From an uncultured Gemmatimonadaceae bacterium (lineage in GTDB: Bacteria; Gemmatimonadota; Gemmatimonadetes; Gemmatimonadales; Gemmatimonadaceae): DNA of 43,593 nucleotides. Position numbers and translations under genes: made by a program. The stretch covers positions 1 through 43,593 of the forward strand of contig CAWHHI010000002.1 in NCBI GenBank assembly GCA_963829055.1. Direction: 5' to 3'. The notes below the pieces were generated by a model, which saw only the letters and a list, made by a program, of their open reading frames with translations, was not told the origin of the DNA and ran no database searches. Shown one piece after another: positions 1 through 37,968 of the stretch. Position 1 is the stretch's first letter. Every line of letters begins with the position of its first letter.

Positions 1-463
1 ATCAACGACGATCATCTCGCGAGGAGCTCGCGATGCGACGCTACGCCCCCCGATTTCCGTGACGTGCGCGACCTGTCACCGCGGCATAGCGCAGCCCCGC
101 CCACTGCAGCAAGTCCTGCTCGGTGCCTACGACGCCGGAGGAACGGATTCGCTCGTCAACGCGTACCGTGCACTTCGCTCGCGCTACTACGGTGCCGCCG
201 CGTACGATTTTGGCGAGGTCCCCCTCGCGGACGTCGCGTCATCGATCGGCGAGCGCGGCAAGCTGGCGGACGCCGTCCGCATCCACGTGCTCAACACGGA
301 GATGTCTCCGACCTCCGGATTCGCGCTCCGCCAGGCATCCGCAGCACAGCTGGCGTTAGGCGACACCGTGGCCGCGATCGCGAGCCTCGAGCGTGCGCTG
401 ACGCTCAACCCTAACAATGGTCAGTCTAAACGGTCGCTGGACACGTTGCGGAAGAAACCGTGA
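1..463 (+). CDS. 5'-truncated c-type cytochrome (reaction-centre cytochrome-c-like heme domain) with C-terminal TPR repeat
   Basis: VTCATCHRG heme-binding CxxCH motif followed by a TPR-like segment (LALGDTVAAIASLERALTLNPNN). Runs off the window start, with a probable indel in the first ~60 nt. Confidence 0.7.
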   Translation, partial: STTIISRGARDATLRPPISVTCATCHRGIAQPRPLQQVLLGAYDAGGTDSLVNAYRALRSRYYGAAAYDFGEVPLADVASSIGERGKLADAVRIHVLNTEMSPTSGFALRQASAAQLALGDTVAAIASLERALTLNPNNGQSKRSLDTLRKKP

Positions 464-492
464 GGCGTGGTGATCCCGGAAAGCGTCAGCTG

Positions 493-924
493 CCCGAGGA
501 GCGCAGCGACGAAGGGGGGACCTTGTGTGAGGTCATCGTAGCCGGCGTTCAGTCATCGGCCAATTTTCTCTCGAGGTCCAACAGCGACGCAGAATTCGCA
601 GGCGCGCTGTGCGCGCAACGCAGAGGGACGCAGAAAACGGCCGCTCGGGACGCCGGCGGTGCGCCGAGCGTTTTAACGAAGGAGAACGGCCTCGGAACGC
701 ATTGGCCTGCCCGAGGCCGTTCCCCCTTCTTCACGGCCCTGGCGCGATGAAGCCTGCCCCGCCGTGTGTTGCAGTTTTCTGCGTCCTTCTGCGTTGCGGC
801 CGCGAAGCGGCAGCCTGCGACTTCTGCGTCGCTGTTGGACGCGCGCACCCTGCTGTGAGCACTTCGCGCGGGACCGGCTTTGAGAACCTGACAGAAGATC
901 CCTCGCTGAACGCTCGGGATGACA
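493..924. repeat. Composite nested inverted-repeat (REP/BIME-like) cluster between convergent genes
   Basis: Outer REP-like half-sites at 493-524 and 895-924 (CCTCGCTGAACGCTCGGGATGACA). Inner inverted repeat 576-638 / 774-840 (GTCCAACAGCGACGCAGAA ... TTCTGCGTCGCTGTTGGAC). Confidence 0.8.
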
Positions 925-931
925 GACCGGC

Positions 932-3900
932 TCAGCTCACGCGTTCGAGCGCGAGCGTGAACGTCGATCCCGTTCCAGGCTCGCTCTCCACCGTCAGCTC
1001 GCCACCCATGCCGCGCGCCAGGTCTCGGCTGATCGCCAATCCGAGCCCTGTCCCCTCCGCCGGCTGCGCGAGCGTACCGAATGCAACTGCACGAACGGCT
1101 CGAAGATCGCTCCCCGGCGATCGACCGGGATGCCGATGCCCGTATCACCCACGCGAATGTAGACTCGAGCCTCGTCGTGCTCGCACACGACGTGGACACG
1201 ACCACCCGGCGGCGTGAACTTCACCGCGTTCGCCAGAAGGTTCAGCAGCACCTGCCGAACCTTCTCGGCATCCGCGCGCGCGACGATGCTGCCGAACACG
1301 GGCTCGCACACGAACTCGAGTTGCTTGGCCGCGAGCTGTGGGCGGATGAGCGACTCGAGATCCCCGAGCAGCTCCGTCACCGGAACGTTCGTCACCCGAT
1401 ACTCGACGTGCCCCGCCTCGAGCCGCGCGAAATTCAGGATGTCGTTGATGACGCTCAGCAGGTGACGCTGACTGCGCATGATGCGACCGAGGTCCTCCTG
1501 CTGCTCGGACGTCGTCGGACCGCGGAGCCCAAGGCTCATCAACTCGGCGTATCCCGAGATCGCGTTGAGCGGCGTCCGGAGCTCGTGGCTCATCGTCGCG
1601 AGGAACTGCGTCTTGGCGCGATTCGCCTCCTCCGCCGCCTGCCGTGCGCTGTGCTCCGCTTCCAGCAACCGTACGCGCTCGAACGCCTGCGTCGCCTGAT
1701 CGCCGATCGACGCGATGTAACCGCGCACGTCGTCGCTGAACACACGCCGCTCGTCGAAGCCTAACGCCACAGCACCCAGCGGCTTGCCAGTGGACGCAAT
1801 CAGCGGCAGCGCCGCCCACGCTTCCTGCGTGACCGTGCGCGCATCGGCAGGCCATGCGGGAAATCGCTGCTTGAACGCGGCTCTGTCGGGGAGGAACACC
1901 GGCTCCTGCGAACGCACGACCTCGGCGAGCGGCGTCTCACTGTCGATGGCGATACGATCGAACCGCCGGCGACTCCACGTCTCCACACCGCGCTCATCCA
2001 TCATGACGAGCTCGGGCCGTCCGTCGCTCCCGTCCTCGACACGGTAGATGGCAACGCGCGGCGTGTGAACGATCTCGCGCAGGTTCGACACCACGACCCG
2101 TGCGATCTCCTGCTCGGAGTTTGCCTCGCCGAGCGCGGCCATGATCGCCTGCAGGCGTTCCGTGCGCTCGCGCGCGATCTGTTCCGCTTCGAACGCGAGC
2201 GCGCGGGCAAGCGCCTGACCGCACTGCGCGGCGAAGAGCTCCATGAACTCGCGCTCGTCGTCCGGGAGATCGCGTACGTCCCTCCACGACAGCGTGATCA
2301 ACGCTCGCACCTGGCTGTCGGTCGCGATCGGCAGCACGACGGCGGTCTGCGTGCCCGCCTGTTCGAAGTACGGCGCTGCCGCCGGATAGCGGGTGCGCGC
2401 ATCGTCGAGCGATTCGATGAACACTCCGCGGGCGGTCGCGACGGCGTCTCGCGTGGCGGCGACGGTCGTGCGGAGCGAATACGACCGCCACGCCTGGAGC
2501 ACGTCCGCGTCGTAGCCGAACGCGGCCACGAAGCGCGTCGTGTCGCCGTCCTCCTCGATGAGCGACACCGTACCCCGTTCCGCACCGAACGCTTCGGCTG
2601 CCTCGGCGAGTATTGTTTCGGCGACAGCCATCGCCGTCGCGGCACCAGTCAGCCGCGCCGTGAGTGCGTAGAGCCGATCGGCCACGCGCGCCGAGCGCTC
2701 GGCGCGCGCGCGCGCGGCAACGGCCTGGCGATGAAGTCGGGCATGTTCGACGGCCACCGCGGCCCGCCGCGCAAGCTCGATCGCGAGTGGCAGGTCACGC
2801 TCTGAGTATCGACGACCCGATTCCGCGGACACGAGTGTGAGCGCACCGACGGCTGTGTCGCCAACGACGAGCGGCACGATCATGGCCGACCGGAGACCGA
2901 GCGTCCGCGTTATGCGCAGATGCTCGTCGTCCACCGCGCCGGCAACGAGCATCTCGTCGGTGATCTCGCTGACGGCTCGGGTCGACGCGTGCGCAACACG
3001 TTAGGCACGCCGGTCGTCGCGTCGGGTCGTGGCGGGTATCGTCGGTTGAGCTCCCGCGCCCACGTGACCTTCGTCGGATCGACGTGTGCCACCGCCAGCT
3101 GCCGAGGGGCGTCTCCGTCCTCGACGATATGCACGGAGCACCAGTCGGCGAGCTGCGGCACGACGATCTGCGCGAGCTGCTCGAGCGTCGTCTCATAGTC
3201 CAGCGACGACCCCAGCACCTCGCTCGCGCGGCCGAGGTAATGCTCGGTCTCCTCGGCTCGCTTGCGGGCGGTGACGTCCACCCATTGTGTCGCGAGACCG
3301 CCATCGGCGAGCGGAAAACACGATAGCGTCAGCCACTCGCCGCGTCCCGGATAGAACGCCTCGAACGTCACCGGGATCCGGTCGGCCGCCGCGCGACGCA
3401 TCTCGCGCTCGAACGCCGTGCCGATGATGTCAGGATACACCTCCCACAGCACGCGCCCGATGGGTGGTTGATTCGAAGCACGCGGCGACTGTCGGAAGAC
3501 CGCGGCGGCAGCGTCGTTGATGAAGAGGAAGCGCCACTTGGCGTCATGCACGACGAACGGATGCGCGATGCTGTCGAGGATGCCCTTCGTGAACAGCTCC
3601 GCCGCTTCAGCCGCGGCAGTCCGATCAGCAAGCTCCTCGGTGGACTGCTCGAGCTCCTCTGAGAGTGCCTGCGATTCCTCGAGCTGCTGTTCCAGCTCCA
3701 TCGCCTGCGACTCGAGCTCGTGGGCAAGCTCCGCGTTCTGAGCCGCTGCCATAGCCGCGGAGCGACGAGCGGTCCGCGCCGCCGTCGTGAGCATCGAAAC
3801 GGCGGTGGACGCGAATAGAAACGCCGCGAGTGGAACGAGATCTTCGGGAGTGGCCAGCGCGATTTTACCTGGCGGGCCGATGAGGTAGTAGTCGACAGCG

Positions 3901-4220
3901 AGTACCGAGAGGGCAGACGCGAGAATCGCCGGACCCAACCCACCAAACCAGGCGCTACCGATGACCGCGGGCCAGAACAGGACAAAAATTGCCCGCTGCA
4001 GCAGCGAGGCTGCGGGTAGTGTGGCCGCGAGCGCGAGTGCGGTAGCGCCAATGGCTACCAGATACCGCACGGGCTGGGGACGTTCTTCGGGGAGAAGCAC
4101 GGCGACCGCGTGGCTGGCGGTCGCCGGAATGCGCGTTGACCTGCGATGCGTCGGGTCGTTCGCCTGAAGTTCTATGCGGCCCTGACTACCATCCTGCGCG
4201 CTGGCCTCCCCACTCGTCAT
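932..4220 (-). CDS. Membrane multi-sensor histidine kinase (DUF4118-like TM region, PAS, three GAF, HisKA, HATPase), split by apparent indels
   Basis: ORFs 2910-4220 and 994-2952 join. H-box [11 protein letters not shown]-box [11 protein letters not shown]1 DTGIGI. After a shift near 1075 the frame continues [18 protein letters not shown]...[11 protein letters not shown] to TGA at 932-934. The start ATG overlaps the PP2C stop (ATGA); a later GTG start is possible. Confidence 0.85.
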
Positions 4221-5149
4221 GCGGCGAGCACCCTCGCGACGACGGCTGTCACGTTATCCGATCCACCGGCCGCGAGCGCCATGTCGATGAGCGATCGGCA
4301 TCCTGCCTCCACGTTAGGCGTGCCGGTGAGCACCTCGCGGATGCTGGCGTCAGACACGTGCTTCGTTAGGCCATCGGTGCACAGGAGCAGCGCGTCTCCG
4401 CGCTCGAGGCGGATGAAATCGACAGCCGGCGTCATGTCCCGCGCGCCGATCGCGCTCGCCAGCACGTTGTATAGCCCGGCCTCCACCGCCTTCTCCTTGG
4501 GCATCCCATGCTCGGAGACGAGCACCTCGCCAACCGTCTGATCACGGGTGAGCGGACGCATCGTGTCCCCACGAAGATGGTAGACGCGGCTATCCCCGAC
4601 ATGAACGATGTAGGCGAACGGCCAGACGACCATCGCCAGCGTGAGCGTGGTCGCAGGTCCGCCTCGCGTGTGCAGCCGGAACGTCTCGACCAGGTGATCG
4701 TGCGCGCGATGCGCAGCCGTGCGCAGATGTTCCGGGAAATCCTTTCCTTGATCGGCGCCGTAGCCGTTGTACGCACCAACCATCTCCCCGAGGTACTCGA
4801 CCATCGTCGCCACCGCGGTGGCGCTCGCGACGCGTCCGCCGGCACTCCCGCCCACGCCGTCGGCGACGACGTAGAGATACGCGCGAGGTCCGGACAGGTG
4901 ATCGAAGATGTGCGGGTCGTCGAGGTTCGTCTGGCGAAGTTGCACGGCGCGCTGCAACGCCGCCGTCACGAAGTGGTCCTCGTTCACCGACCGCACGTTG
5001 CCCACGTGAGACATGCCGTAGCTCTCGATCAGGCGCCGCACGTCGGCCGTGGTGCCTGACGAGGCGACTGCTGGTGGGAGAGCCGGCTCCGGGCGCGGGA
5101 TGATGCCAACTGCGCGGTCCGTCCCGATGGGTAGCTGTGCGTCGGTCAT
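4217..5149 (-). CDS. PP2C/PPM-family Ser/Thr protein phosphatase
   Basis: Motifs SHVGNVRSVNED, VADGVGG, HVGDSR, LCTDGL, GGSDNVT. GAGGA RBS before the ATG at 5149. Confidence 0.92.
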   Translation of the reverse strand: MTDAQLPIGTDRAVGIIPRPEPALPPAVASSGTTADVRRLIESYGMSHVGNVRSVNEDHFVTAALQRAVQLRQTNLDDPHIFDHLSGPRAYLYVVADGVGGSAGGRVASATAVATMVEYLGEMVGAYNGYGADQGKDFPEHLRTAAHRAHDHLVETFRLHTRGGPATTLTLAMVVWPFAYIVHVGDSRVYHLRGDTMRPLTRDQTVGEVLVSEHGMPKEKAVEAGLYNVLASAIGARDMTPAVDFIRLERGDALLLCTDGLTKHVSDASIREVLTGTPNVEAGCRSLIDMALAAGGSDNVTAVVARVLAA

Positions 5150-5360
5150 CGCGTGTCCTCGGTGCACCTGCGTTATCGTGGCGGCGGCCGCACGGCGCAC
5201 ACCGACTATGGGCTCCCCAAACTATGACACCGGCACGCGGGCGGCTATGCTCGGCCCATTACCCGGACTCCGGCTGCCCGGTGGTGCCGTACGCCCGGCG
5301 GTGATAAGCTGACCGCGCTTTGCACGCTTCACATTGCTTCTTGCTTCCTGGGGGAGACTC

Positions 5361-5702: not shown

Positions 5703-5819
5703 CGGGCGGACTCCGGCGCGGGGTGCACGACCGGCTGCGATGAAAGCCGGCGCGCCTCACCCCGATCGCGCGCTTTGGCCAGCAAGCCGGGGTCCACCGT
5801 CGCGTTGGAGGATCCGGCA

Positions 5820-7934
5820 ATGCCCGGCACGACAACGGACGACGCCGACGACGACACCCCAAAGACGACTCGTCCAAGTGCCTGGCGGCGGCGAGAGCCG
5901 GAACCGGCGACCACGGCGGCCGAGAACATCGGACGCAAGCTCGACGCGGTGCCAGATCGGGTGGACACACGCGACTGGTTCTTCCAGCCCCGCCTAACGC
6001 CGCTGCCGACGTCGCTCGTGAACTGCGATCACGTGCCGGCCATTCTCGATCAGGGCAACGAGGGCGCGTGCACCGGGTTCGCGCTGGCGGCGGTAGTGAA
6101 CTACCTGCTCGCGCATCAGACCGTGGATCGCAAGGTGAGCCCGTACATGCTCTACGAGCTCGCGCGAAAATACGACGAGTGGCCGGGCGAGGGATACGAG
6201 GGATCATCGGCGCGAGGCGCCATGAAGGGCTGGGTGCGCCACGGCGTGTGTCTCGAGAAATCGTGGACGAAGAAGGACAAGGGCGTCAGCTGTCTCCGGA
6301 AGACGCTGAAGAAAGGGTTCACCATCAGCGACGAGGCGCGCGCCACGCCGGGCGGCGCGTTCTACCGTGTGCAGCACGACCAGGTGCGTGACATGCACGC
6401 CGCCATCGCCGAGGCGGGCGCGATCTACTGCACGCTCATGGTGCATTCCGGGTGGGACGATCCGGGCGGAGACGCGAAGGCGCCGCGCGCACCGGTGACT
6501 GGCTCCAATACGATCGAGAGCCTGCCGATCATCCAGCGTCGCGGCCGCGCGACGGATGGTCATGCGGTCGCGATCGTCGGCTACACCGACGTGGGCTTCG
6601 TCATCCAGAACTCGTGGGGACCGACGTGGGGCGAGAAAGGGTTCGCGCTCCTGCCGTACGAAGACTTTCTCATGCACGCCACCGACGTCTGGGTGATGCA
6701 GATCGGCGTGCCGCTCAAGATCGATCTCTGGGAGCAGGGAAAGACGTTCGCCGACTCCGCGGCCGGCTTACCGCGCGCGCATCAGGCGGTGCCGCTCGAC
6801 GCGATTCGTCCGTTCGCGGTGGATGTCGGTAACAACGGCGAGCTGTCCGACACCGGCGACTACTGGACGACGCCCGACGACATCGAGCACCTGTTCGCCG
6901 TCACGATACCGGAAGCGACGAAGGCGTGGCGTCGCCGGCGCATCATGCTCTACCTGCACGGCGGCCTGAACGACGAGCGCTCCGTGGCCGATCGCATCAT
7001 CGCGTTCCGCGAGGTGATGCTCGCGAACGAGATCTATCCGATCCACATCATGTGGGAGTCCGGTGGTGTGGAGACGTTAGGCAACATGCTCCGGGACTAT
7101 CACACGGATGTGGATGACCGCGCCGGCGTCGGCGAATGGCTCAAGAAGCTGCGCGACAACCTCGTCGAGGCGAAGGACCGATCGCTCGAGGTGACGCTGG
7201 CGCGACCGGGTGGTCTCATGTGGCGCGAGATGAAGGAGAACGCGCGGCTCGCCTCGGAGCATCCGGACGGAAAGGGCGCGATGCAACTGCTCACGACGCG
7301 CGCGCGAAAGGCGGTCTCGAGTCTCGCCGAGACGACTCGTGGGTCACTCGAGCTGCACGTCGTCGGACACAGTGCCGGGAGCATCTTCGCGGCGTACGCG
7401 TTGCCGCTGCTGCTCAAGGCTGGCATCAAGCTGCGCACCATCCAGTTCATGGCGCCCGCCATCACGGTCGAGCTGTTCCGGCAACTCGTCCTGCCGCTGG
7501 TCGAAGGTGGGAAGTGCCCACACCCGACGAACTACGTGCTGAGCGATGCTGGTGAGCGGGATGACACGATCGGCCCGTACGGCAAATCGCTGCTGTTCCT
7601 GGTCAGCAACGCGTTCGAGGGAACGCGCGGCGTGCCGCTGCTCGGCATGGAGCGATTCGTCAGCGGCCGCGGCGAGATGGAAGACCGATTCCTCGGCCCC
7701 AATCGCTGGGCGAACGAATTCTTCACGAAGACCGTGGATGGAAACGCGAGCCTCGTCGTTGCGGGCAATGAAACGCTGGATCGGTTGCCGGGCGCGCTGC
7801 AGGGCGCGAGCCTGAGTCGAAGCGAGAGTCACGGCGGCTTCGACAACGACGTCGACACAATGAACTCGGTGCTCACCCGAATTCTTGGCGCGAGGCCGAG
7901 GAGGTTCTTCGAGGTCCGCGACCTGAGGTACTGA
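5820..7934 (+). CDS. Papain-like C1 cysteine peptidase fused to a C-terminal alpha/beta-hydrolase-like domain
   Basis: DQGNEGACTGF (Gln/Cys), GHAVAIVGY (His) and QNSWG (Asn). The C-terminal part has YLHGGLN, GHSAG and SHGGFDND. GGAGG RBS at 5807-5811. Confidence 0.88.
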   Translation: MPGTTTDDADDDTPKTTRPSAWRRREPEPATTAAENIGRKLDAVPDRVDTRDWFFQPRLTPLPTSLVNCDHVPAILDQGNEGACTGFALAAVVNYLLAHQTVDRKVSPYMLYELARKYDEWPGEGYEGSSARGAMKGWVRHGVCLEKSWTKKDKGVSCLRKTLKKGFTISDEARATPGGAFYRVQHDQVRDMHAAIAEAGAIYCTLMVHSGWDDPGGDAKAPRAPVTGSNTIESLPIIQRRGRATDGHAVAIVGYTDVGFVIQNSWGPTWGEKGFALLPYEDFLMHATDVWVMQIGVPLKIDLWEQGKTFADSAAGLPRAHQAVPLDAIRPFAVDVGNNGELSDTGDYWTTPDDIEHLFAVTIPEATKAWRRRRIMLYLHGGLNDERSVADRIIAFREVMLANEIYPIHIMWESGGVETLGNMLRDYHTDVDDRAGVGEWLKKLRDNLVEAKDRSLEVTLARPGGLMWREMKENARLASEHPDGKGAMQLLTTRARKAVSSLAETTRGSLELHVVGHSAGSIFAAYALPLLLKAGIKLRTIQFMAPAITVELFRQLVLPLVEGGKCPHPTNYVLSDAGERDDTIGPYGKSLLFLVSNAFEGTRGVPLLGMERFVSGRGEMEDRFLGPNRWANEFFTKTVDGNASLVVAGNETLDRLPGALQGASLSRSESHGGFDNDVDTMNSVLTRILGARPRRFFEVRDLRY

Positions 7935-8302: not shown

Positions 8303-9490
8303 TTACTTCATCTGGCGCAGTGACGCGATGCGCGTCGCGCGACTCTTCGGGCTGTCGAGGCTGAACGATCGCGCGTCGCCGAGCTGATCGCGGACGAACG
8401 TCTGTGTCTCCTCGACCGCAGCCTCGAGCGCCTTGTCCTTCTTGCGGCCGAACGTCGCCCACACGATCGAGCCCGCGTCCACATCGAACTCCCACAGTCC
8501 GATGATCTGGCCGCGGTCCAGGATCGCGTGACTCGGAAGATCCATGAGCCCGCCCGCTGGCTTCGCCGACGTGTCGACGACGAACATCCGCTCACGGTCC
8601 TTCGGATCGAGGAGCGACTGCATCTCGCGCCGGTTCGCGGTGATCGGATCGAGACTGCTCACGAGCGCGTACTCGGGCTTCGTCGGTGCCTTGAACGCGG
8701 CGAATGCCTTCGCGTCGTCAGGCAGCAGCAGGCGATCGCTGCCGGTTTCGGCCGGCACGAGTCCGAGCGGCTCGACGGCCTGCTTCGTCGCCTTCACGCC
8801 GAGACCCGAGAACCACTGGAACTCGCCTAACGTCGCCGGACCGACCCAGCGGAAGAAGCGGCGCGCGAGCTCCGTGAACGCGGCGTCGAGCGACAGGGGA
8901 TATTTCGTGAGCGGATTCGGCGACCAGTTCGTGTACTTGTAGCGCTGCTGGTCCAGCCGTCCGTTCGTCGGGACGCGACGCAACTTCCCCGCGGTCTGCA
9001 ATCGTCCGAGCGCCAGCGGCAGGGTCGTCGTCAGACCCTTTTTCCTGCCTTCGTCGCCGAGACTGCGCGACGCCTTCCCGGTCGCTTCGCGAATACCGTC
9101 AGGGTCGAGCGGCCCCTTCGCGAGCGCCATCACGATGCCGTCGCAGAGCTTGTCGATCTCGTTTTCCGTGACGCCGAGCTTGAGCGCCTGCTTCATGTCG
9201 CCGCCGCTGAACTCGCGCCCGACGGTGAGCCCGAGCGCGAAGTCACTGGCGGGCAGCACGTACGTGCACCCACGTGCGGTCGGGAGCTCGTGGATCTCGA
9301 GCTTCGCCGCCGCGCGATCCGCGTCCTCGCGACTCGTGCGACCGCGGGAGAACAGCGTGAGGTACGGCCCCACTCCGCCGACGGAGCGCGCCCACCCGCA
9401 CCGCTCGAGAATCGCCGCAGGCGATTGTCCGAGGAGCGATCCATCGAGCCCTTGGCGGTGCGACCACCAGGCGCGGAGCTTGGATTCCAT
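8303..9490 (-). CDS. Winged-helix DNA-binding protein of the AlkZ/YcaQ (HTH_42) crosslink-repair glycosylase superfamily
   Basis: 395 aa. Recognisable segments ELARRFFRWVGPATLGEFQWFSGLGV and C-terminal HAILDRGQIIGLWEFD. Confidence 0.72.
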   Translation of the reverse strand: MESKLRAWWSHRQGLDGSLLGQSPAAILERCGWARSVGGVGPYLTLFSRGRTSREDADRAAAKLEIHELPTARGCTYVLPASDFALGLTVGREFSGGDMKQALKLGVTENEIDKLCDGIVMALAKGPLDPDGIREATGKASRSLGDEGRKKGLTTTLPLALGRLQTAGKLRRVPTNGRLDQQRYKYTNWSPNPLTKYPLSLDAAFTELARRFFRWVGPATLGEFQWFSGLGVKATKQAVEPLGLVPAETGSDRLLLPDDAKAFAAFKAPTKPEYALVSSLDPITANRREMQSLLDPKDRERMFVVDTSAKPAGGLMDLPSHAILDRGQIIGLWEFDVDAGSIVWATFGRKKDKALEAAVEETQTFVRDQLGDARSFSLDSPKSRATRIASLRQMK

Positions 9491-11272: not shown

Positions 11273-12691
11273 ATGTTGAATTCTGCTTTGGCGCATCCGG
11301 CGCGCCTCGCATTCGTTTTCTGGTTTTTCTGTTTCGCGCTCACCATTCCTGCTTCGGCCGGCATCGCGCAGCAGGCCGCCGTAAAGAACGTCACCCTCCC
11401 GCTCACACTCGCCGACGCCTGGGCCAGAGCCGAAGCGAAGAGCGATCAACTCACCATCGCCGGCGCGCGCGAGGAGCAGGCTCGGGGTAGTGCACTCGAG
11501 TCGGGCAGCCTCCGCCGCCCGCGACTGTCCGCGTTCTCATCGTACGACCGTACGCTCCAGAGTGAGTTCGAAGGAGTCACGGGTTTCGCCCCGGATTCCA
11601 CGACATCCTCGAGCGAAGACTCTGCCGAGATTCCGTTCGGCAGCGCTCACACCTATCGCGCCGGGCTGACCGCGTCCTACACGGTCTTCTCCGGCGGACG
11701 CTTCCTCGCCCAGACCCGCGCCGCCGCGAGCAGCCGTCGCGCAGCGGAGCTCGGGTTCGTCTCGACCCGCGCCCAGGTACGCCTCGACGTCACCGAGGCC
11801 TACTACGACGCGATGCTCGCCGATCGCCTCCATCGGATCGCCGAGTGGACGCTCGAACAGGCCGACAGCACGTACCACCGGATGACGCTCATGACCGGCG
11901 TGGGTCGCGCGCCGGAGTTCGACCTCGTCCGCGCCAAGGCATCACGCGATCGGCAGCGCCCGGTGGTCATACAGCGCGAGGCCGATCGAGACATCGCGAT
12001 GCTTCGCCTGCGCCAACTGCTGCATGTTCCGGCTACCGCGGAGCTCACGCTCCCGACGGACATTGTCGCGGCACCGGCAGACCGGCCAGGCGCGCCTTCT
12101 ATAGAAAGTGCGTCGAGAGAAAGTGCGTCGAGCCGCACCGCCGTCCGCGAAGCCGCGGAGTCTGTCGCCCGGGGCGAGCAGCTCGTGCTCGCGTCCGAGG
12201 CCGGTCGGTTACCGGCCGTCAGCCTCACCTCCACCTACGAGCGCGTCGCCTACCCGCTTCGGGGGAACCCGACGTGGAAGGAGTCACGCGCGAACTGGAC
12301 GCTCGGTGCTCGCGTCGATCTACCAATCCTGACGGGCGGGCACCAGAGTGGCAGCGATGCCGTAGCACACGCCGAGCTCGATGCCGCCCGCGCTCGGCTC
12401 CGCCAGACGGAGCAGCTCGCGGAGCTCGACACGCGCTCGTCGATGGCGCGCCTCGGGGCGGCAGAGGCGGCGTTCGAGGCGAGCGAGGCGAGCGTCGAGG
12501 AAGCCTCTCGCGCCTACTCGATCGCGATGCTGCGCTTTCACGAGGGCGTTTCCATCCAGCTCGAACTGACCGACGCACGCCTGCTGCTCGAGCAGGCGCG
12601 TGCGGACCAGGCACGTGCGGCGCGCGATCTCTCGGTCGCACGCGTCCGCGCTGCTCTGCTCACCGACCTGCCGTTAGGCAGCGGCCGGTGA
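11273..12691 (+). CDS. TolC-family outer membrane efflux protein
   Basis: Signal peptide, two OEP-like repeats (VTEAYYDAMLA; RFHEGVSIQLELTDAR), first gene of a tripartite efflux operon. Confidence 0.9.
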   Translation: MLNSALAHPARLAFVFWFFCFALTIPASAGIAQQAAVKNVTLPLTLADAWARAEAKSDQLTIAGAREEQARGSALESGSLRRPRLSAFSSYDRTLQSEFEGVTGFAPDSTTSSSEDSAEIPFGSAHTYRAGLTASYTVFSGGRFLAQTRAAASSRRAAELGFVSTRAQVRLDVTEAYYDAMLADRLHRIAEWTLEQADSTYHRMTLMTGVGRAPEFDLVRAKASRDRQRPVVIQREADRDIAMLRLRQLLHVPATAELTLPTDIVAAPADRPGAPSIESASRESASSRTAVREAAESVARGEQLVLASEAGRLPAVSLTSTYERVAYPLRGNPTWKESRANWTLGARVDLPILTGGHQSGSDAVAHAELDAARARLRQTEQLAELDTRSSMARLGAAEAAFEASEASVEEASRAYSIAMLRFHEGVSIQLELTDARLLLEQARADQARAARDLSVARVRAALLTDLPLGSGR

Positions 12692-28547: not shown

Positions 28548-30281
28548 ATGTCGCTCTGTCTTCGCGGGAGTCACCGTCCCATTGCACTCGTCGCCGGCGT
28601 TGCCGCGTTAGGCTTCGGCCTGGCGGCGTCGGCGCTCACGGCGCCGCTCTCGGCCCAGGTCGTTCGCGGCACTGTCACCGAACGGGCCACTAACACGCCC
28701 GTCTCCGGCGTCCTCCTCGCGGTGCTCGATGGTCGGGACACCGTCGTCGTGCAGGCGTTGAGCAGCGAGGGGGGCGGTTTCGAGATTCGCCTTCCAGGGC
28801 CCGGGACGTATTCGCTCGACGTCAAACGCATTGGCGTCAAGCGCGTCCGACTCGCGCCCTTCACGGTCACCGAGGGCGAGTCGCGGCTGCTCGACATTTC
28901 CGTCGAACCGGTGCCCGCAGTCCTGAGCTCCATCAACATCACGGGCCGCACGTCGTGCGTTCGCAACCCGCAGACGAACGCGCGCACCGCCGCGTTATGG
29001 GAAGACGCCCGCGCCGCGCTCACCGCCGCGGTGATCACGCGCGGTCTCGTCGGCGCCGCCGACACGGTCGTCCGCTTCGAGCGGAAGCTCGACGTGCGCG
29101 ACTGGCACGTGCTCTACGAGACGCGCCGGAAGGTGTCCGCGTCCTGCGACCATCCGTTCCGCAGCCTCCCGGCGGAAGTGCTTTCCGTGGGCGGCTACAT
29201 CACGGTGAACCAGGACGGCTCGACGGACTACTACGCTCCCGACGCGGAAGTCCTGCTCTCCGATACCTTCCTCGCGGATCACTGTTTCAAGATCGTGCCC
29301 GCGGGGGAGTACGACCACGTCGGGCAGATCGGGCTCGCGTTCCAGCCGATCCCCGAGCGGAAGAAGCCCGACATCAAGGGCGTGCTCTGGATGGACGAGA
29401 AGTCGGCGGAGCTGCGCACCCTCGAGTTCAACTACACCTGGCTGCCTAACGACGTCCGCCCCGCGGATTTCGGTGGCACGGTGTCGTTCTTCCGGATGCC
29501 CGGCGGCCGGTGGATCGTCCGGAGCTGGAAGATCCGGATGCCGGAGTTCGGCAACCAGCGCACCGTGCAGACCGCGGATGGATCCTACGTTTCCGTCGGC
29601 CGCAGCAGCTCGCCGGTGGTGGCCCGCATCTCCGAAGAAGGCGGCGCCGTCCCACTCTCCACGCTGATGGGCCAGGTCGGTCAGGTGCGCGGAACCGTCG
29701 TGATGGACACGATCACGAACAAACCAATCGCCGGAATCACCGTCGCGCTCGAAGGCACGGGCGACTCGACGACGACAGGAGTGGACGGCGGTTTCGAGTT
29801 GCCGTTCGTGCAGCCGGGCTCCTACACCATCGTGATCCGGCATGCAGTGCTCGATTCGTTAGGCATCCGCCACCTCGCGCGCACGGTGGAGGTCGACGCT
29901 GGCCAATCGGCCGCGCTGGCGCTGCGCTTTCCGACGAACCAGGAGCTCGCGGGCCGCCTGTGTGACAAGCCCGTGGACTTCGCACGCCACTCGGTCATCC
30001 GATTCCTGATTGTCGATCAGGCCGGTGTGCCATTGGCGAATACGCCGGCGGTGTTCTCTCGTGTGCCGATCGACTCCACCGGCAAACCAGTCGCGGACAG
30101 TGCTACCTCCTGGGACGTCAAGCTCGACGCTGGCGGCGGCTTCCTCGGCTGCGCGCTACGCGGGGATGAGATCGTGCGGATCGAGGCGGTGCCTGAATCC
30201 GGGACGCCGTGGGGAGAGACAGTCCGCCCGCGCGTGGGCCTCATCGGGTGGCACGTGGTGCGTATCGGTAAGCGGCGATAG
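28548..30281 (+). CDS. Secreted protein with carboxypeptidase-regulatory-like (prealbumin-fold) domains
   Basis: Signal peptide ending LSAQ, then VVRGTVTERATNTPVSG. YYAPDAEVLLSDTFLADHCF core. Second VRGTV...PGSYTI repeat. Confidence 0.75.
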   Translation: MSLCLRGSHRPIALVAGVAALGFGLAASALTAPLSAQVVRGTVTERATNTPVSGVLLAVLDGRDTVVVQALSSEGGGFEIRLPGPGTYSLDVKRIGVKRVRLAPFTVTEGESRLLDISVEPVPAVLSSINITGRTSCVRNPQTNARTAALWEDARAALTAAVITRGLVGAADTVVRFERKLDVRDWHVLYETRRKVSASCDHPFRSLPAEVLSVGGYITVNQDGSTDYYAPDAEVLLSDTFLADHCFKIVPAGEYDHVGQIGLAFQPIPERKKPDIKGVLWMDEKSAELRTLEFNYTWLPNDVRPADFGGTVSFFRMPGGRWIVRSWKIRMPEFGNQRTVQTADGSYVSVGRSSSPVVARISEEGGAVPLSTLMGQVGQVRGTVVMDTITNKPIAGITVALEGTGDSTTTGVDGGFELPFVQPGSYTIVIRHAVLDSLGIRHLARTVEVDAGQSAALALRFPTNQELAGRLCDKPVDFARHSVIRFLIVDQAGVPLANTPAVFSRVPIDSTGKPVADSATSWDVKLDAGGGFLGCALRGDEIVRIEAVPESGTPWGETVRPRVGLIGWHVVRIGKRR

Positions 30282-30706: not shown

Positions 30707-33441
<2,735 letters not shown>

Positions 33442-33471
33442 CCCGGGTCGTCGTCGAGTGCCGTTGCCGAG

Positions 33472-33503
33472 TCCCCAGTTCCCGTTCCCGATTCCCAGTC
33501 CCG
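33472..33503. repeat. Short degenerate tandem repeat of TTCCC(A/G)-type units between padR and the permease
   Basis: TCCCCAGTTCCCGTTCCCGATTCCCAGTCCCG. Confidence 0.55.
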
Positions 33504-33839
33504 TCAGCCCATATCCAGCACGAGCGACACGGCGGTCGTGAGTGTCCGCCAGGCATCGGCTTCGAGCTGGAGCTGATTGCGACCGCTGCGCGTGAGCTCG
33601 TAGTACTTCGCGCGTCGATTGTTGTCCGACGCCCCCCACTCCGCCTTGATCCACCCGCGGCGCTCGAGGCGATGCAGGGCAGGGTACAGCGAGCCCTGGG
33701 GGATCTGCAGCATCGCCTTCGAGACGTCGCGAAGACGCTCGGAGATCGCCCACCCATGCATTGGCCCGAGCGAGATGGCCTTGAGGATGAGCAGGTCGAG
33801 CGTGCCCTGTGGGAGGTCGAGCTTTTCGTGGTCTGGCAT
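33504..33839 (-). CDS. PadR-family transcriptional regulator (type associated with ADOP permeases)
   Basis: LPQGTLDLLILKA...MHGWAI...QGSLYPALHRLERRGWI...SDNNRRAKYYELTRSG. Lies directly upstream of the permease. Confidence 0.93.
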   Translation of the reverse strand: MPDHEKLDLPQGTLDLLILKAISLGPMHGWAISERLRDVSKAMLQIPQGSLYPALHRLERRGWIKAEWGASDNNRRAKYYELTRSGRNQLQLEADAWRTLTTAVSLVLDMG

Positions 33840-33843
33840 GGTT

Positions 33844-33898
33844 CCCCTGTCACTTCTACAAGAAGATGATTGCGCGGATCCTGTAGAAGCGCAAGGGG
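33844..33898. promoter_or_regulatory. Putative PadR autoregulatory operator pair
   Basis: Two CCTGT-N7-ACAGG-like sites that together form an imperfect inverted repeat (CTTCTACA 33853-33860 / TGTAGAAG 33882-33889), overlapping the padR RBS. Confidence 0.5.
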
Positions 33899-33911
33899 AG
33901 TTCTGGTCCAG

Positions 33912-34216
33912 CGCGCCGGGGCCGGTGGGAACTACGATGACGCGGATTGCACGGAAAACGGCCGGATACGGCTGCATCGACGCTGGCTCATCACCGGACC
34001 TGAATAGGAGGCCGCTCGGGATGCGCGTCTCGAGCGCCTCGAGGAATCCTGGCTCGTTCGGGCGGAGTCGGGAGTCCGGAGCATCCGATCTACCGCGGCA
34101 TCGGCCGAATCGTCGATTCCTCCAGACTGCGCCTCGATCGATGCGGGTATGCAAAGCCGATCCGGCCGTTCTGCTGTCAATCCGCCCAATCGCAGTTCCC
34201 ACCGGCCCGGGCGCGA
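33912..34216. repeat. Long palindromic element, family A, copy 3 (diverged interior)
   Basis: CGCGCCGGGGCCGGTGGGAACTACGAT...CACGGAAAACGGCCGGATACGGCT on the left and ATGCAAAGCCGATCCGGCCGTT...GTTCCCACCGGCCCGGGCGCGA on the right. Confidence 0.85.
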
Positions 34217-34301
34217 TGAGCCGTCCGCGCAATCGTCGTTCCCCCATTGTCTCCCGCCAATGTCCCGCCTTTCTTCAGGCCTTCCTTGATACGGAGGATC
34301 A

Positions 34302-34883
34302 ATGAATCAGCCTAATCGCAGTCCCGAGGAGAGGACCGGCGAAGCCTTCGAAGGCGACATTCGGCTCACCGTCGTCGGGTCGAAGCTTCACCCGGGAATG
34401 CCCGCTCCAGATTTTGCGCTCGACGCGCTCGCCCCAGGCGAAGCGCTGCCGCGCGAGGTGACGCTCGCCTCAGGTGCCGGCCGAGTGCGGCTGCTGCACG
34501 TCGTCAACTCGCTCGACACGCCCGTCTGCCACGTCGGAGCCCACCGCTTCGAGACACTCCGACAGAGCGACCTGCCCGCTGGCGTCGACGTGCTCACTGT
34601 AAGCATGGACCTGCCGTTCGCTCAGGCGCGCTGGCGGGCGGCCGAAGGGGTCGAGCACGAAGCGGTGTCGAGCCATCGAAGCGAGGACTTTGGCCGGGAC
34701 TACGGCGTGCTCCTCCGCGAGTGGCGACTGTTGCAACGCGCCGTGTTCGTCATCGACGCCGCCAATCGCGTGACCTACGCCGAGTACGTGGCCGATCAGA
34801 TGGCGGAGCCGGACTATGCCGCGGCGCTCGAAGCCGCGCGGTCGGCGGCGTCGCACGCGAACGCGGCTACCGCGGTTACATAA
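34302..34883 (+). CDS. tpx: Thiol peroxidase (Tpx-like peroxiredoxin)
   Basis: APDF, NSLDTPVC, SMDLPFAQARW, FGRDYGVL...LLQRAVFVID, EPDY. GGAGG RBS. Confidence 0.85.
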   Translation: MNQPNRSPEERTGEAFEGDIRLTVVGSKLHPGMPAPDFALDALAPGEALPREVTLASGAGRVRLLHVVNSLDTPVCHVGAHRFETLRQSDLPAGVDVLTVSMDLPFAQARWRAAEGVEHEAVSSHRSEDFGRDYGVLLREWRLLQRAVFVIDAANRVTYAEYVADQMAEPDYAAALEAARSAASHANAATAVT

Positions 34884-34903
34884 GCCACTGTAAAGCCACT
34901 GTA
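34882..34903 (+). promoter_or_regulatory. 11-bp direct repeat upstream of the LuxR-type gene
   Basis: AAGCCACTGTA x2, perfect, with a period of one helical turn. Confidence 0.45.
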
Positions 34904-35007
34904 AGTGCTGGCCAATCCTCCCATAAGCACGAGGTAAGAGCGCCCTCACAATTTCCTGCGCGTCGCCGGCACGGTGCCGGCGAGGGCGATCACAATCGGA
35001 GGCATTC

Positions 35008-35967
35008 GTGCTGGCGACTCGCGACGACGTGTACCAGAACTTCCCGTCCACGGCTCCCACCCGCTACGAGACGCTCTCGGCGGCCCAGTCCCTCGCCTCG
35101 CTCGAGCGTGCCCTCCACACTCTGCTTTCTCCCTTCGACTACTCGACCGCCGCGGAGTGGCTCGACGCTGCCTGCACCGCGATGGGCGAGGTCACCGGCA
35201 GCGAGTTCCGCATGCCGACCGTCGCGTCGGGCGAAACCGCCTGGGACGCAATCGAGCGTGCGCTCGACGCGTACGCCGCGCGTGTGAGCGCCGCGGCCAC
35301 GGCGGAGAATCTGCAGCGGGCCGCGATGATCCGCGTGCTCGTGCCCCCGTTCAAAGCTGGCGTCTCGGAATGGCGTCGCCTCGCGTCGCGTCGCACCGAG
35401 CTCGCTGCGCTGCTCGACGCGATCCCGGAGCCGGTGCTGATGTATGACGGTTCGGGTGGACTCGTCCACGCCAATCCCCGGGCGGCCGCGTTGTTCGGCA
35501 TGCCCGGCGCGGCCGGGCCGGGCGCTCAGGTTCGCACCGAAGCGCAGCGCATGGCCTGGAGCCTGGCCGCTGCGGCGCAGCGTTCGGCGAAGGATGCAGC
35601 GAACGAGTCGAAGGCCGCCAACACGCCGGCGCTTCGCGAAGTCCGAGCGGACGGTCGGGTCTACCATCTGCGCGGCACGCTGGCCACGGGGTGGATGCCG
35701 GGCGGCGAGGCCGGCGTTCTCGTGACGGCCGCGTTCGAGCTCGTGAATCCGCTGACCGACCTCGAGCTCCGTAGCCGCTACGGCCTCAGCGCGCGCGAAG
35801 TCGAGGTCGCGCGTCTTGTCGCGACCGGCTTGTCGAACCAGGAAGTCGCTGAGCAGTTGGGCGTCAGCTACTTCACCGCGCGCAACCACGTCGAGCGCGT
35901 GCTGTCGAAGCTCGGCGTCGGCAACCGTTCGCGCGTGGGCGCGGTGCTTCGGAACGAAGCCGCGTGA
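35008..35967 (+). CDS. LuxR-type HTH regulator with a PAS-like domain
   Basis: LLDAIPEPVLMYDGSGGLVHANPRA. C-terminal LSAREVEVARLVATGLSNQEVAEQLGVSYFTARNHVERVLSKLGV. GGAGG RBS. Confidence 0.9.
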   Translation: MLATRDDVYQNFPSTAPTRYETLSAAQSLASLERALHTLLSPFDYSTAAEWLDAACTAMGEVTGSEFRMPTVASGETAWDAIERALDAYAARVSAAATAENLQRAAMIRVLVPPFKAGVSEWRRLASRRTELAALLDAIPEPVLMYDGSGGLVHANPRAAALFGMPGAAGPGAQVRTEAQRMAWSLAAAAQRSAKDAANESKAANTPALREVRADGRVYHLRGTLATGWMPGGEAGVLVTAAFELVNPLTDLELRSRYGLSAREVEVARLVATGLSNQEVAEQLGVSYFTARNHVERVLSKLGVGNRSRVGAVLRNEAA

Positions 35968-35979
35968 AGATCGCGTGCC

Positions 35980-36101
35980 AGCTGGTGAGGGCAGGCGAGG
36001 CAGGCCGTATTGCCGGAATTGGCAACACGACCCCTCCAGCACGGGAGGGTCGCCTTTGCCAATTCCGGCAATGAGGCCAGAATCGCCTGCCCTCACCAGC
36101 T
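35980..36101. repeat. ~120-bp hairpin between convergent regulator genes (possible bidirectional terminator or small repeat element)
   Basis: AGCTGGTGAGGGCAGGCGA / TCGCCTGCCCTCACCAGCT (19 bp) and ATTGCCGGAATTGGCAA / TTGCCAATTCCGGCAAT (17 bp) perfect arms. Confidence 0.85.
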
Positions 36102-36113
36102 TACGCCGATCCA

Positions 36114-37968
36114 CTACCCGGCCTTGATCTCGTCGTGCAGCTCGCGGGTCTCTTCCTCCGGCTCGGCGTCCAGCTCTTTGCGAAGCCGTTCACTGAAGCG
36201 CTGGTAGAGCCGGAGCGCCTGCGATCGTTCACCGACGCGAGCATAGCACCGCATCAATGCGCGGGTCGCGTCCTCGTTCAGGTCGTCCCGCGCGAGTAGG
36301 CGGCGATACGCATCGGCCGCCTTCGCGATGCGATCCTCCGTCGCGTGCTGGTTTCCGAGCTCCATCAGCGCGTCGCTGAAGAGGCGCTGTAGTCGATCGC
36401 GATGGTCGAGCGACCAGTCGCCCGCCGGCTCGCCGTCCATGAAATCCCCTCGGAAGCGCGCGACCGCGCGCTCGAGTGCCGCAACGGCGCCCTCTTCCCG
36501 ACGTTTGAGCGCCCGCCGCGCCGCGACGATCTCCCGCTCGAACTCCGCGACGTCGAACTCCGCCACGACTTCCGGGTCAACGCGGTAGCGGTCGTTCGAC
36601 AACGTGATCCAGTCGGGGTTGCGCAGCGCTTTGCGAAGGCGATGCAGCGTGACGTGGAAGCTGTTGCGGAGCTGTGTGGACGACGCCTCCGGCCAGAACG
36701 CGAGGCCGACCTGTTCCTTCGTTCGACCGTCGGGGTGCATCAACAGGTAGACGAGCAGCTCGCGCGGCCGCGCCGATCCCCACACGGTGGTGTCGATGGC
36801 CTCGTTGCCCACGAACACCTGCAGCGGACCTAACGCGAGCACGCGCAGCATGTCCGTGGCGGGCGGAGTGACTGGCGGCACCACGGGCACGTCGCCGAGT
36901 ATGGGCACCTTGTACTCCGCGGTCTGCATGCCGCCGGCGTCGCTCGCAATCTGAGCGACTTCCTCCATGGGCATGTGGCGGCCCTCGTCGTACATGCGCT
37001 CGTAGTATCCGCCCAGCTGCTCGCGCGCGATCTTCACGAGTCGCTCGCGCTCGCCGCGGTCCGACGCCGGCAGCGCGATCGCGACGCGCTCGCGGAGCGC
37101 GTCGACCGCACCCATGAGGCGGACGCCATCCGCGTATCGCTCGCGAGCGATCACGAGGCCGGCGAGTCCCTCGAGGTCGAGCGCGAGCCCCCAGCCATCA
37201 CCGACCTCGAGATGAACGCGGAGACCATCGCTCAGTCGAGCGTACGCCTCGTCGTACTCGCCCAGCTTGCAGAGCACCCTGCCGAGCATTGCGCACGAGT
37301 GAGCGAATGACGTCCGGTGGCTGATCTGCCTGCCGAAGCGAACACCGTCCTCGAACATTTCGCGCGCGAGTTGGAGCTCGCCGCGGACGACCGCACCCCA
37401 CCCGCGCCAGAAGCGGATGAAGGAATGCAGAACCGAAAGCGGCAGGGGCTTCGCGATCTCGAACGACTCGTCCAGCAGCTGACCGGCGAGCGACGTTGTC
37501 GCCGAGCATGATGTACGTGGCGCCGAGCTTGGAGAGCACGAACGCGATGGACGAGACGTCGCCGTGGGCTCGGAACAGCGCCAGGCTCTCGGTGAACGAA
37601 CCGCGGCACTGCTCGTAGTCGCCCTGAGCGAGCGCGCTCAGACCGTCGGCCGCGAGCGCTCGCGCGCGCAGCAACGGATCGACGTCACGCGCGTTCGCGA
37701 GCGCGCGGGCGATCTGGTCGCGCGCCTGTTGAAACTGTCCCGAGCCGTACCAATACCCCGTGCCGTACCAGTACCAGAACAGCGCATCGGCGAAGCGCAG
37801 CGCCTGCTCGGCGCGTGACGGATCGCTCGCAGCCCACGCGGATGCGTCGCGGAGGTTGTCGTGTTCGACCGCAATGCGTGCGAGGAGTCCGGGCTCGTGT
37901 TCGCCGCCGATCAGCAACGGCGCAAAGCGTTCGGCAAACTCGAGGTAGTGTCGCGCGTGGCGTTGCTT
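36114..37968 (-). CDS. TPR-containing regulator with C-terminal wHTH-BTAD; N-terminus (probable NTPase) missing at the junction; indel near 37485
   Basis: RHARHYLEFAER...EHDNLRDA (post-NB-ARC region), TPRs, LRVLALGPLQV...RPRELLVYLL...AFWPEAS, EDATRALMRCYARVGERSQAL. Confidence 0.82.

Follow-up and report, generated by a model that had tools for sequence, protein, structure and literature searches.

In the genome of an uncultured Gemmatimonadaceae bacterium (GenBank assembly GCA_963829055.1, here G000), the 8-mer CGTTAGGC occurs 5,004 times, and the genomic signature of this word appears to be of the uptake-sequence type, in soil bacteria. The word was noticed in contig CAWHHI010000002.1 (C2 of the 20 contigs of this 7.78 Mb assembly), which was analyzed at its entire length of 43,593 nucleotides and is referred to as the window. 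From the pattern of occurrence of the word we infer word-biased DNA uptake or recombination, and we tentatively favor the reading that CGTTAGGC is an uptake-sequence-like self tag spread by molecular drive.

An exact search of the window found 24 copies of CGTTAGGC, 15 on the plus strand and 9 on the minus strand, and reproduced the count, the strands, and every coordinate listed in a first-pass annotation that had been made from the letters of the window alone. In 100 dinucleotide-preserving shuffles, the mean number of copies was 0.62 and the largest was 3. The approximately 35 GTTAGG cores of that annotation, with an end coordinate of 36834, were recovered as well: 35 cores were counted, compared to 4.96 expected, and the final one spans 36829-36834. 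Genome-wide, the copies (2,547 on the plus and 2,457 on the minus strand) correspond to 0.64 per kb, with densities of 0.48-0.80 per kb across all 20 contigs, and by the zero-order observed/expected ratio CGTTAGGC is the top 8-mer (16.9-fold). It is not at the top of a maximal-order Markov ranking. Its own 7-mers and 6-mers consist almost solely of the word: TTAGG is preceded by G in 96% of cases, with C before that in 88%, and is followed by C in 77%. Past the eight letters, the flanks carry near-zero information, reflecting just the 3-base periodicity of coding sequence, and CGTTAGGC is therefore a free-standing 8-mer and not a piece of a longer repeat. The commonest one-letter variants have C changed to T at the first (435 copies) or last letter (827 copies). 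Letters 2, 3, 6, and 7 are very rarely changed, the inner variants CCTTAGGC and CTTTAGGC having 9 copies each compared to 457 and 323 for their reversed control words. One variant, CGTTATGC, has 583 copies genome-wide (3.9 times the zero-order expectation and 4.1 times its reversed control), unlike the other inner-position variants, which are depleted.

For the analysis of coding sequence, genes were called by a purpose-built hexamer model (7,870 genes, 78.5% of the genome); the calls are crude and the assembly contains many frameshifts, so that the division into coding and non-coding sequence is approximate. On this approximate division, 32% of the copies fall outside called genes, and the densities of 0.56 (coding) and 0.95 (non-coding) per kb are unreliable, since frameshifted genes are missed. 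Inside genes, the word is read in each of the four frames left open by its two stop codons, namely xCG-TTA-GGC (1,355 copies), xxC-GTT-AGG-C (467), xGC-CTA-ACG (628), and xxG-CCT-AAC-G (963). The first-pass annotation had taken the variety of frames and the use of otherwise rare codons to mean that the constraint appears to act on DNA rather than on protein. This is upheld by the four stop-free frames, by the presence of copies on both gene strands, and by the genome-wide count against a codon-aware null that the annotation had called for: called genes contain 3,453 copies compared to 176 after within-gene shuffling of synonymous codons and 114 after resampling from global codon usage, which amounts to a 20- to 30-fold enrichment. 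Of all TTA codons in called genes, 46% lie within the word, which is carried by 22% of the [SPTA]-L-G sites, 20% of the [SCRG]-L-T sites, 11% of the x-V-R-[LPHQR] sites, and 57% of the x-P-N-[VADEG] sites able to encode it. The last of these fractions implies that proteins were altered to fit the word, and protein sequences have indeed been changed by it: the observed/expected ratio of the dipeptide Pro-Asn is 1.41 in G000, 1.43 in the word-rich G005, and 1.83 in the word-rich G014, compared to 1.09 in the word-poor G008, while the reversed dipeptide, Asn-Pro, does not differ among these rich and poor genomes. Along genes, copies are evenly spread, and per-gene counts are slightly under-dispersed.

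The word has no meaningful replication-strand bias. Across 130 bins of 50 kb, 2,056 of 4,078 copies (50.4%) lie on the GC-skew-positive strand; on contig C16, where GC skew and gene orientation switch in a terminus-like manner near 550 kb, the corresponding share is 55% (left arm, 158 plus and 111 minus; right arm, 187 plus and 209 minus). The annotation had taken the occurrence of both orientations as an argument against a strictly polar role like that of the FtsK-orienting polar sequences (KOPS), and the skew test it had suggested agrees, with a replication dependence that is weak or nil. A KOPS-like role in orienting FtsK was consequently rejected on skew.

The spacing of the copies, with a mean gap of 1,529 bp and a median of 1,101 bp, is marked by a deficit of short gaps. 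Gaps below 200 bp make up 4.3% compared to 12.3% under a Poisson model, and those below 100 bp make up 1.4% compared to 6.3%, whereas all 11 control 8-mers of similar or lower abundance lie at or above the Poisson expectation for short gaps. A next copy within 100 bp occurs at 0.26x on the same strand and 0.19x on the opposite strand, at 100-200 bp these values are 0.55x and 0.41x, at 200-300 bp they are 0.89x and 0.76x, and past 300-400 bp the deficit is gone; neighboring copies share their orientation 52% of the time. The exclusion in both relative orientations implies that one copy renders a nearby second copy redundant, whichever way it points. This orientation-blind exclusion argues for a reader of double-stranded DNA that acts per fragment, and it is a misfit for a strand-specific translocase or a site-autonomous mutational process. 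Furthermore, the gap distribution has no peak of close inverted pairs, so the copies are neither terminators nor attC sites, and no local cluster pointing to a regulated gene was found, 4 copies occurring in just 28 windows of 1 kb.

Conservation in orthologs, a test that the annotation had suggested, was examined in 125 kb of orthologous coding alignment between G000 and its congener G005 (79% nucleotide identity). Here, 36 of 70 G000 copies are kept in place, compared to 19% for control 8-mers in the same frames, and in the reverse direction 36 of 72 are kept; at sites with identical amino acids the fraction reaches 32 of 47, compared to 31% for the control. Between G000 and the word-rich G014, which belongs to another genus (1.14 copies per kb in the sample), shared positions number 4 of 31 and 4 of 77 (control, 6.4%), and between G000 and the word-poor G008 the number is 0 of 19. 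Judged from these alignments, the word is actively maintained within a lineage and was independently placed in different lineages; its density matters, its position does not.

A genome was considered rich if its copies numbered 300 or more and exceeded twice the count of the reversed control word. Among 41 relatives, 13 are rich and most others are depleted below the control. The rich relatives comprise all 7 of the window's genus (2,501-5,112 copies) as well as G014, G010, G019, G020, G036, and G040, with G014 (92% complete) being the richest genome at 6,360 copies in 5.1 Mb; CGTTAGGC is the top word in both G005 and G014. In an even sample of 301 Gemmatimonadota genomes, rich genomes account for 10 of 70 in the window's family and 2 of 125 in a second family, both from genus g74, of which a third genome has 579 copies compared to 340 for the control. 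A third family has 0 of 3 in this sample and 2 of 8 among the 41 relatives, and its member G038 has 177 copies compared to 69 for the control; the remaining nine families have 0 of 103. Even within genus g46, two species contain 3,896 and 4,141 copies and a third contains 66. G305 of the same sample, with 4,469 copies in 7.5 Mb (4 contigs, 100% complete), resembles the completed genome of an isolate. These counts include four genomes flagged as unpublished, G013 (both sets) and G086, G125, and G204 (301-genome sample), and G013 also enters the tallies of IntI, ComEC, ComEA-type HHH_3, and the methyltransferase-helicase pair given below; all four are word-poor, and no claim depends on them.

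Beyond the phylum, one genome from each of 185,579 species was scanned for opposite-orientation pairs 300-325 bp apart, which yielded at least 120 loci, 80 of them with flanks. The 80 flanked loci listed comprise 32 from Gemmatimonadota, 28 from Verrucomicrobiota (mostly Chthoniobacterales), and 20 from other taxa, with 0.93, 0.84, and 0.04 copies per kb, respectively, not counting the seeding pair. Four Verrucomicrobiota genomes contain 2,512, 2,918, 3,272, and 5,186 strand-symmetric copies, with controls near 270, and in a sample of Chthoniobacterales 5 of 121 genomes are strongly rich while most are depleted. The distribution is thus patchy in both Gemmatimonadales and Chthoniobacterales. 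For Gemmatimonadota, this is the survey that the annotation had proposed, and its suggestion of a genome-wide, non-palindromic signal of the class of Chi, uptake sequences, or HIP1 is borne out by a word that is found genome-wide and in relatives. A third phylum, suggested by one Acidobacteriota metagenome-assembled genome (MAG), was rejected: 13 copies occur locally in 20 kb, but the genome-wide count is 135 compared to 475 for the control, in clustered doublets. In the Acidobacteriota MAG G322 (C4:995350-1383429), dozens of same-strand word doublets exactly 25 bp apart extend over approximately 400 kb, a repeat or array type that is unlike the attC sites of Gemmatimonadales.

The three longest word-free stretches of G000 are all located at contig ends (C6:5440-55037, C11:1-46789, and C6:591808-623330, i.e., 50, 47, and 31.5 kb). 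They encode housekeeping genes (ftsK, DAHP synthase, pepA, chorismate synthase, and folD), and a second copy of each of these five genes elsewhere in G000 is only 47-59% identical. These stretches appear to stem from another organism, and chimeric assembly, mis-binning, or a recent acquisition on a large scale would have brought them in; the word-free ends of C6 and C11 are probably chimeric joins or another organism's DNA in the MAG. The word can accordingly serve as a purity marker that flags foreign or chimeric stretches in assemblies, such as these contig ends.

Two IMG/VR contigs with copies in mixed orientation encode portal, large and small terminase, holin, and repressor genes and carry 29 copies in 16.0 kb (1.8 per kb) and 21 copies in 18.1 kb (1.2 per kb), with copies sitting within the terminase and portal genes. 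Taken together, 23 of these copies are antisense, 12 are sense, and 15 are intergenic, a weak difference (p = 0.03) from the host, where 47% are antisense. A search for terminase relatives added one informative phage, L268, whose terminase is 38% identical to that of one rich phage and which has 0 copies in 21.4 kb. Richness therefore follows the host and not the phage lineage, and the word can link phages to hosts. No further word-rich phage was found among 39 loci with opposite-orientation pairs in viral contigs, most of which are chance pairs, and the prophage hallmarks PF04860, PF05065, and PF03354 had no match in G000.

The word is also related to integrons. It consists of a preceding C and the integron core site GTTRRRY, as given in PMC3053210, its last seven letters being identical to that core, and this identity is real. 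In word-poor relatives, the few copies form same-strand runs approximately 500-700 bp apart, and folding of the 110 bases upstream of these runs revealed conserved attC hairpins that end in CGTTAGGC. Such attC arrays include 23 sites in 20 kb of G027:C95 (L007, 1-20000), 8 sites in G025:C3 (L008), and 7 sites in G027:C80 (L009), the last adjoining an intI fragment. The attC hairpins of these large chromosomal cassette arrays are highly uniform. Same-strand word arrays also dominate the matches in viral contigs, over a GC content of 0.30-0.66. In G000, folding revealed no attC hairpins at the word copies beside its own intI, and throughout its genome the copies lack an attC hairpin, an inverse core, and a conserved flank; C precedes the word in 14-16% of genome-wide copies, and C or T does so in attC sites. 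IntI scores above the curated cut-off in 7 of the 13 rich relatives and in 17 of the 28 poor ones, with only fragments in G014 and no match over the cut-off in G002, G004, G010, and G020. As IntI does not track richness, it does not explain the genome-wide copies.

According to the reading as an uptake-sequence-like self tag, some protein would read the double-stranded word in either orientation, and fragments with at least one copy would be favored either at the uptake of relatives' DNA or in surviving to recombine. Word-bearing fragments would then replace word-free ones more often than the reverse, so that the word would spread along the chromosome by molecular drive, with no benefit to the cell required. 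The spread would halt at approximately one copy per 1.5 kb, where it would be balanced by mutation and protein cost. A bias at the cell surface and a bias after entry, in fragment survival or recombination, would have the same genomic outcome. Our tests narrow the class of signals toward uptake-sequence-like ones and away from Chi, KOPS, and Vsr-type drive, and the signature matches that of uptake sequences on every tested genomic criterion save lineage specificity. G000 has a type IV pilus locus with pilMNOPQ and pilin genes, and it has 7 N_methyl pilin genes. The locus (L037, C12:386533-403963) comprises three small pilins, proteins of 306 and 383 amino acids (aa), pilM, pilN, pilO, a 115-aa gene, and an AMIN-domain secretin, and it is neighbored by genes for chorismate synthase (aroC), shikimate kinase (aroK), smg (DUF494), and topoisomerase I (topA).

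Several observations weigh against this reading. ComEC and ComEA-type HHH_3 are each present in 40 of the 41 relatives and, like the pilus, are equally common in word-poor ones, and hence do not discriminate. The pilins P0001 and P0002 and the 383-aa protein of the pilus operon were found in 4 of 4 rich genomes tested and also in the 1 poor genome tested, G294 of genus g46, and no ComP-like receptor emerged among the three pilus proteins compared. Moreover, uptake sequences differ between families and form dialects, whereas CGTTAGGC reaches hyper-abundance in two phyla with its letters unchanged, and a search of 400 kb of the poor relative G008 turned up no other hyper-abundant word. An uptake model leaves the identity with the integron attC core unexplained, and the dense word in two true phage contigs is not predicted by uptake drive but by a Chi-like signal. 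The remaining probability is spread over the rival explanations considered below and something not yet imagined.

The phage contigs also bear on a Chi-like role, in which a helicase-nuclease that degrades linear DNA would stop or switch to recombination at the word, so that the cell's own DNA and phages imitating it would be spared and word-free DNA would be destroyed. Such a role would account for an over-represented 8-mer that is absent from foreign stretches and that reaches or exceeds host density in two phage contigs, with none in 21 kb of a related phage, and the antisense excess in the phages provides a weak hint of polarity; E. coli phages without RecBCD inhibitors are described to over-represent Chi (PMC3784561). 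We nevertheless regard it as improbable. RecC was found in 1 of the 41 relatives and not in G000, and the search for AddAB-like PDDEXK_1 pairs gave matches in 15 of the 41, of which 4 belong to the 13 rich genomes and 11 to the 28 poor ones, with none found in G014. Furthermore, the replication-strand bias is just 50-55%, and the exclusion between copies in opposite orientation, which is at least as strong as that in the same orientation, would not be caused by a strand-specific reader. The enrichment, moreover, is approximately ten times that of Chi, for which PMC3784561 gives an observed/expected ratio of only about 2.3 in E. coli, and it runs against codon usage. An effect on phage DNA would likewise follow from a drive coupled to repair or modification, in which a sequence-specific enzyme, either a nickase or a methyltransferase partnered by short-patch repair, would convert near-cognate sites into the word in any replicating DNA. 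Such a drive has been proposed for cyanobacterial HIP1. A mobile enzyme of this kind would account for the patchy spread in two phyla, and the very rare inner-position variants CCTTAGGC and CTTTAGGC fit as well. The sole DNA methyltransferase candidate in G000 is of the MmeI/Eco57I type (asymmetric site) and is followed by an SNF2/ResIII helicase (C8:73551-78314, L041:9551-14314; approximately 1080 and 950 aa, respectively, the former in relatives). However, this pair was rejected because it does not track richness: all 24 of 24 family members have it, whether rich or poor. Matches to Vsr came from 4 of the 41 relatives, all of them word-poor, and from 0 of 13 rich ones, the searches of G000 and of other rich genomes turned up neither a C5 methyltransferase nor Vsr, and the methyltransferase families PF00145, PF01555, and PF02384 had no match in the 86% complete G000. 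In addition, a site-autonomous process gives no reason for exclusion within 300 bp, and the end-letter C-to-T variants are the commonest one-letter variants instead of being depleted. This drive is therefore considered unlikely.

The core identity, in turn, suggests an integron-linked explanation, in which an IntI-type recombinase would read the word as a secondary double-stranded target, providing thousands of landing or excision points for cassettes. The attC hairpins that end in the word in poor relatives and the arrays in viral contigs over a wide range of GC content agree with this, and the identity of the word across two phyla would follow from a core that phyla have in common. We consider it very unlikely, though, given the occurrence of IntI irrespective of richness, the missing hairpins and flanks, the preceding base that differs from attC sites, and the harm that thousands of insertion points in genes would do. 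Similarly doubtful is a binding site for a protein that organizes the chromosome from a regular lattice of sites, be it nucleoid-associated, condensin-loading, or similar: while the uniform spacing, the use of both orientations, and the copies in coding as well as non-coding sequence would be consistent with it, positions are not conserved between rich genera, the word is patchy even within genus g46, and phage enrichment is not predicted. In addition, we know of no architectural protein that uses thousands of exact 8-mers. A further idea, which we likewise hold to be improbable, joins two of the above: the word would be the tag by which a DNA-acquisition system recognizes the integron cassette core, and a horizontally mobile reader would make soil bacteria of two phyla prefer environmental DNA that bears attC, with their own chromosomes and phages filling with the word as a by-product. 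As for the reader itself, the annotation had advised correlating the word with methylase, RecBCD/AddAB, and competence genes, and here the outcome was negative: IntI, Vsr, RecC, PDDEXK_1, ComEC, and ComEA do not track richness, nor do the three pilus proteins in the four rich genomes and the one poor genome compared. A search for genes transferred between phyla, comparing 853 open reading frames (ORFs) of 26 word-rich loci (25 from Verrucomicrobiota and 1 from Acidobacteriota) to the G000 proteins, returned only housekeeping matches (median identity 40%, maximum 79%).

Within the window, 22 of the 24 copies lie inside called genes (TTA-GGC, 11; GTT-AGG, 2; CTA-ACG, 6; CCT-AAC, 3). The first copy (354..361, plus strand) is read in sense as GCG-TTA-GGC (A-L-G) in gene 59-460, and the second (1759..1766, minus) in sense as GCG-TTA-GGC in a GAF histidine kinase gene (997-2952, minus). 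It is followed by an antisense copy at 2999..3006 (plus) in gene 2913-4220 (minus), with GTG-CCT-AAC-GTG (V-P-N-V), and by two antisense copies in the PP2C gene 4220-5200 (minus), at 4312..4319 (plus, ACG-CCT-AAC-GTG) and 4364..4371 (plus, GGC-CTA-ACG, G-L-T), the latter sitting 52 bp after the former, a rare short gap. Gene 5775-7931 (plus) carries copies at 5992..5999 (minus, antisense, CGC-CTA-ACG) and 7075..7082 (plus, sense, ACG-TTA-GGC), and an AlkZ-like glycosylase gene (8306-9490, minus) carries one in sense at 8825..8832 (minus, ACG-TTA-GGC). In the efflux region, an outer-membrane efflux gene (11288-12688) contains the sense copy 12672..12679 (plus, CCG-TTA-GGC), and an HlyD-family gene (12819-13997, plus) contains the copies 13255..13262 (minus, antisense, CGC-CTA-ACG) and 13897..13904 (plus, sense, ACG-TTA-GGC). 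The AcrB-family gene 14011-17136 contains three sense copies on the plus strand, at 14766..14773 (CTC-GTT-AGG-CTC, L-V-R-L), 16157..16164 (ACG-TTA-GGC), and 16964..16971 (CCG-TTA-GGC). Three copies also fall in a BTAD/AAA regulator gene (17555-21310, minus): 18548..18555 and 20078..20085 (both plus, antisense, CGC-CTA-ACG) as well as 19435..19442 (minus, sense, CTC-GTT-AGG-CGG). Gene 28530-30278 (plus) has sense copies at 28606..28613 (plus, GCG-TTA-GGC) and 29857..29864 (plus, TCG-TTA-GGC) and an antisense copy at 29444..29451 (minus, CTG-CCT-AAC-GAC). An FtsX-type gene (30710-31417, minus) carries a sense copy at 30965..30972 (minus, GCG-TTA-GGC), and the final full copy of the window lies in sense in gene 32683-33432 (minus), at 33100..33107 (minus, ACG-TTA-GGC). 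The copies 23000..23007 (plus) and 32103..32110 (minus) are outside called genes.

Eleven GTTAGG cores in the window lack one or both flanking C and are degenerate copies; they lie at 11215, 25551, 30728, 32311, 32679, and 32953 on the plus strand and at 410, 12851, 22740, 25968, and 36829 on the minus strand. The tail of the window (33108..43593) has no full copy. The chance of such a copy-free tail, 10.5 kb of contig end with fragmented ABC-transporter genes, is approximately 0.001 at 0.64 copies per kb, and the tail may differ in origin or in assembly quality.

The window also contains a repeat of approximately 350 bp (9579-9930) in the intergenic region between the AlkZ-like and PALP genes, with at least 20 more copies in G000 at 80-86% identity and in both orientations, which has the look of a miniature inverted-repeat transposable element (MITE). 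CTCGGAATG and GGATGACA, which head the maximal-order Markov ranking, cluster strongly at short range and may belong to MITE-like elements. With regard to assembly quality, positions 5701-7345 are 99% identical to a contig end (C15:53127-54768), reflecting either an assembly overlap or a recent duplication. Genes split by frameshifts include that of a class I Glu/Gln tRNA synthetase, broken in two (26779-28313), and the ABC transporter fragments (38447-43593). Short-read contigs of four public runs differ from the window by single-base indels (e.g., at 5690, 9510, and 12821), which indicates that the assembly has indel errors. When these four runs were compared to window positions 1-20000, 0 of the 40 listed differences (383 in total) fell into the 16 word copies, with 0.26 expected, so that this comparison has no power. 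Near relatives, sharing 45-66% of the sampled 31-mers, occur in 19 of 24 listed runs, which are rhizosphere, soil, and freshwater-sediment metagenomes; a twentieth run has 30% of these words.

In the literature searched, no description of CGTTAGGC was found, the exact word occurring in primers or unrelated sequences among the matches listed, and within the same scope nothing was found that pairs a Gemmatimonad with an uptake sequence. If the reading as an uptake-sequence-like tag is true, tagged gene exchange would be far wider than thought and would reach soil bacteria of two phyla that are abundant and difficult to study, with a single 8-mer as a concrete handle on whether Gemmatimonadota and Verrucomicrobiota are naturally transformable. 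The integron-core identity and the phage enrichment depart from the textbook model, and the word may therefore be read by a protein of a new kind. If, on the other hand, the word were a tag tuned to the cassette core, these bacteria would fish gene cassettes and each other's genes from the soil DNA pool, and natural transformation and integrons would constitute one gene-capture pathway and an exchange community across phyla.

Among known systems, HIP1 (GCGATCGC) is a cyanobacterial 8-mer that occurs approximately once per kb and is imposed on coding sequence. CGTTAGGC resembles it in these respects; however, HIP1 is a palindrome linked to methyltransferases, while CGTTAGGC is asymmetric. KOPS, or architecture-imparting sequences, are octamers read by FtsK, and they are likewise spread over the chromosome but strongly leading-strand skewed, a skew that CGTTAGGC does not have. 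With attC and attI, the word shares its last seven letters, and the attC sites of this order end in the full 8-mer, whereas the genome-wide copies lie on both strands in ordinary genes, independent of IntI. Like Chi, CGTTAGGC is an over-represented octamer that marks a cell's own DNA and can be enriched in host phages, as described for Chi in PMC3784561; unlike Chi, it has no leading-strand skew, RecC is near absent, and the AddAB-like genes do not correlate with richness. Only two families of animal-associated Proteobacteria are described in PMC1939737 and bioRxiv 10.1101/2025.10.24.684340 as having sequence-specific uptake tags, the Pasteurellaceae, with uptake signal sequences (USS), and the Neisseriaceae, with DNA uptake sequences (DUS). 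CGTTAGGC differs from these tags in having 8 letters instead of 9-12, in being the same in two phyla while patchy within families and even one genus, in being dense in two phages, and in its identity with the integron core site. It resembles them (PMC2817400) in being a short, non-palindromic word that occurs approximately once per kb, equally on both strands, in line with the missing orientation bias of uptake sequences reported in PMC1939737, and that is more evenly spaced than by chance, as found by Karlin et al. for uptake sequences (cited in PMC1939737). Moreover, it lies inside genes, in several frames and at a cost to proteins; the core genome conserves it and foreign DNA lacks it, just as DUS are reported to be absent from recently acquired Neisseria genes (PMC2397512); and the uptake hardware of type IV pilus, ComEA, and ComEC is present as well.

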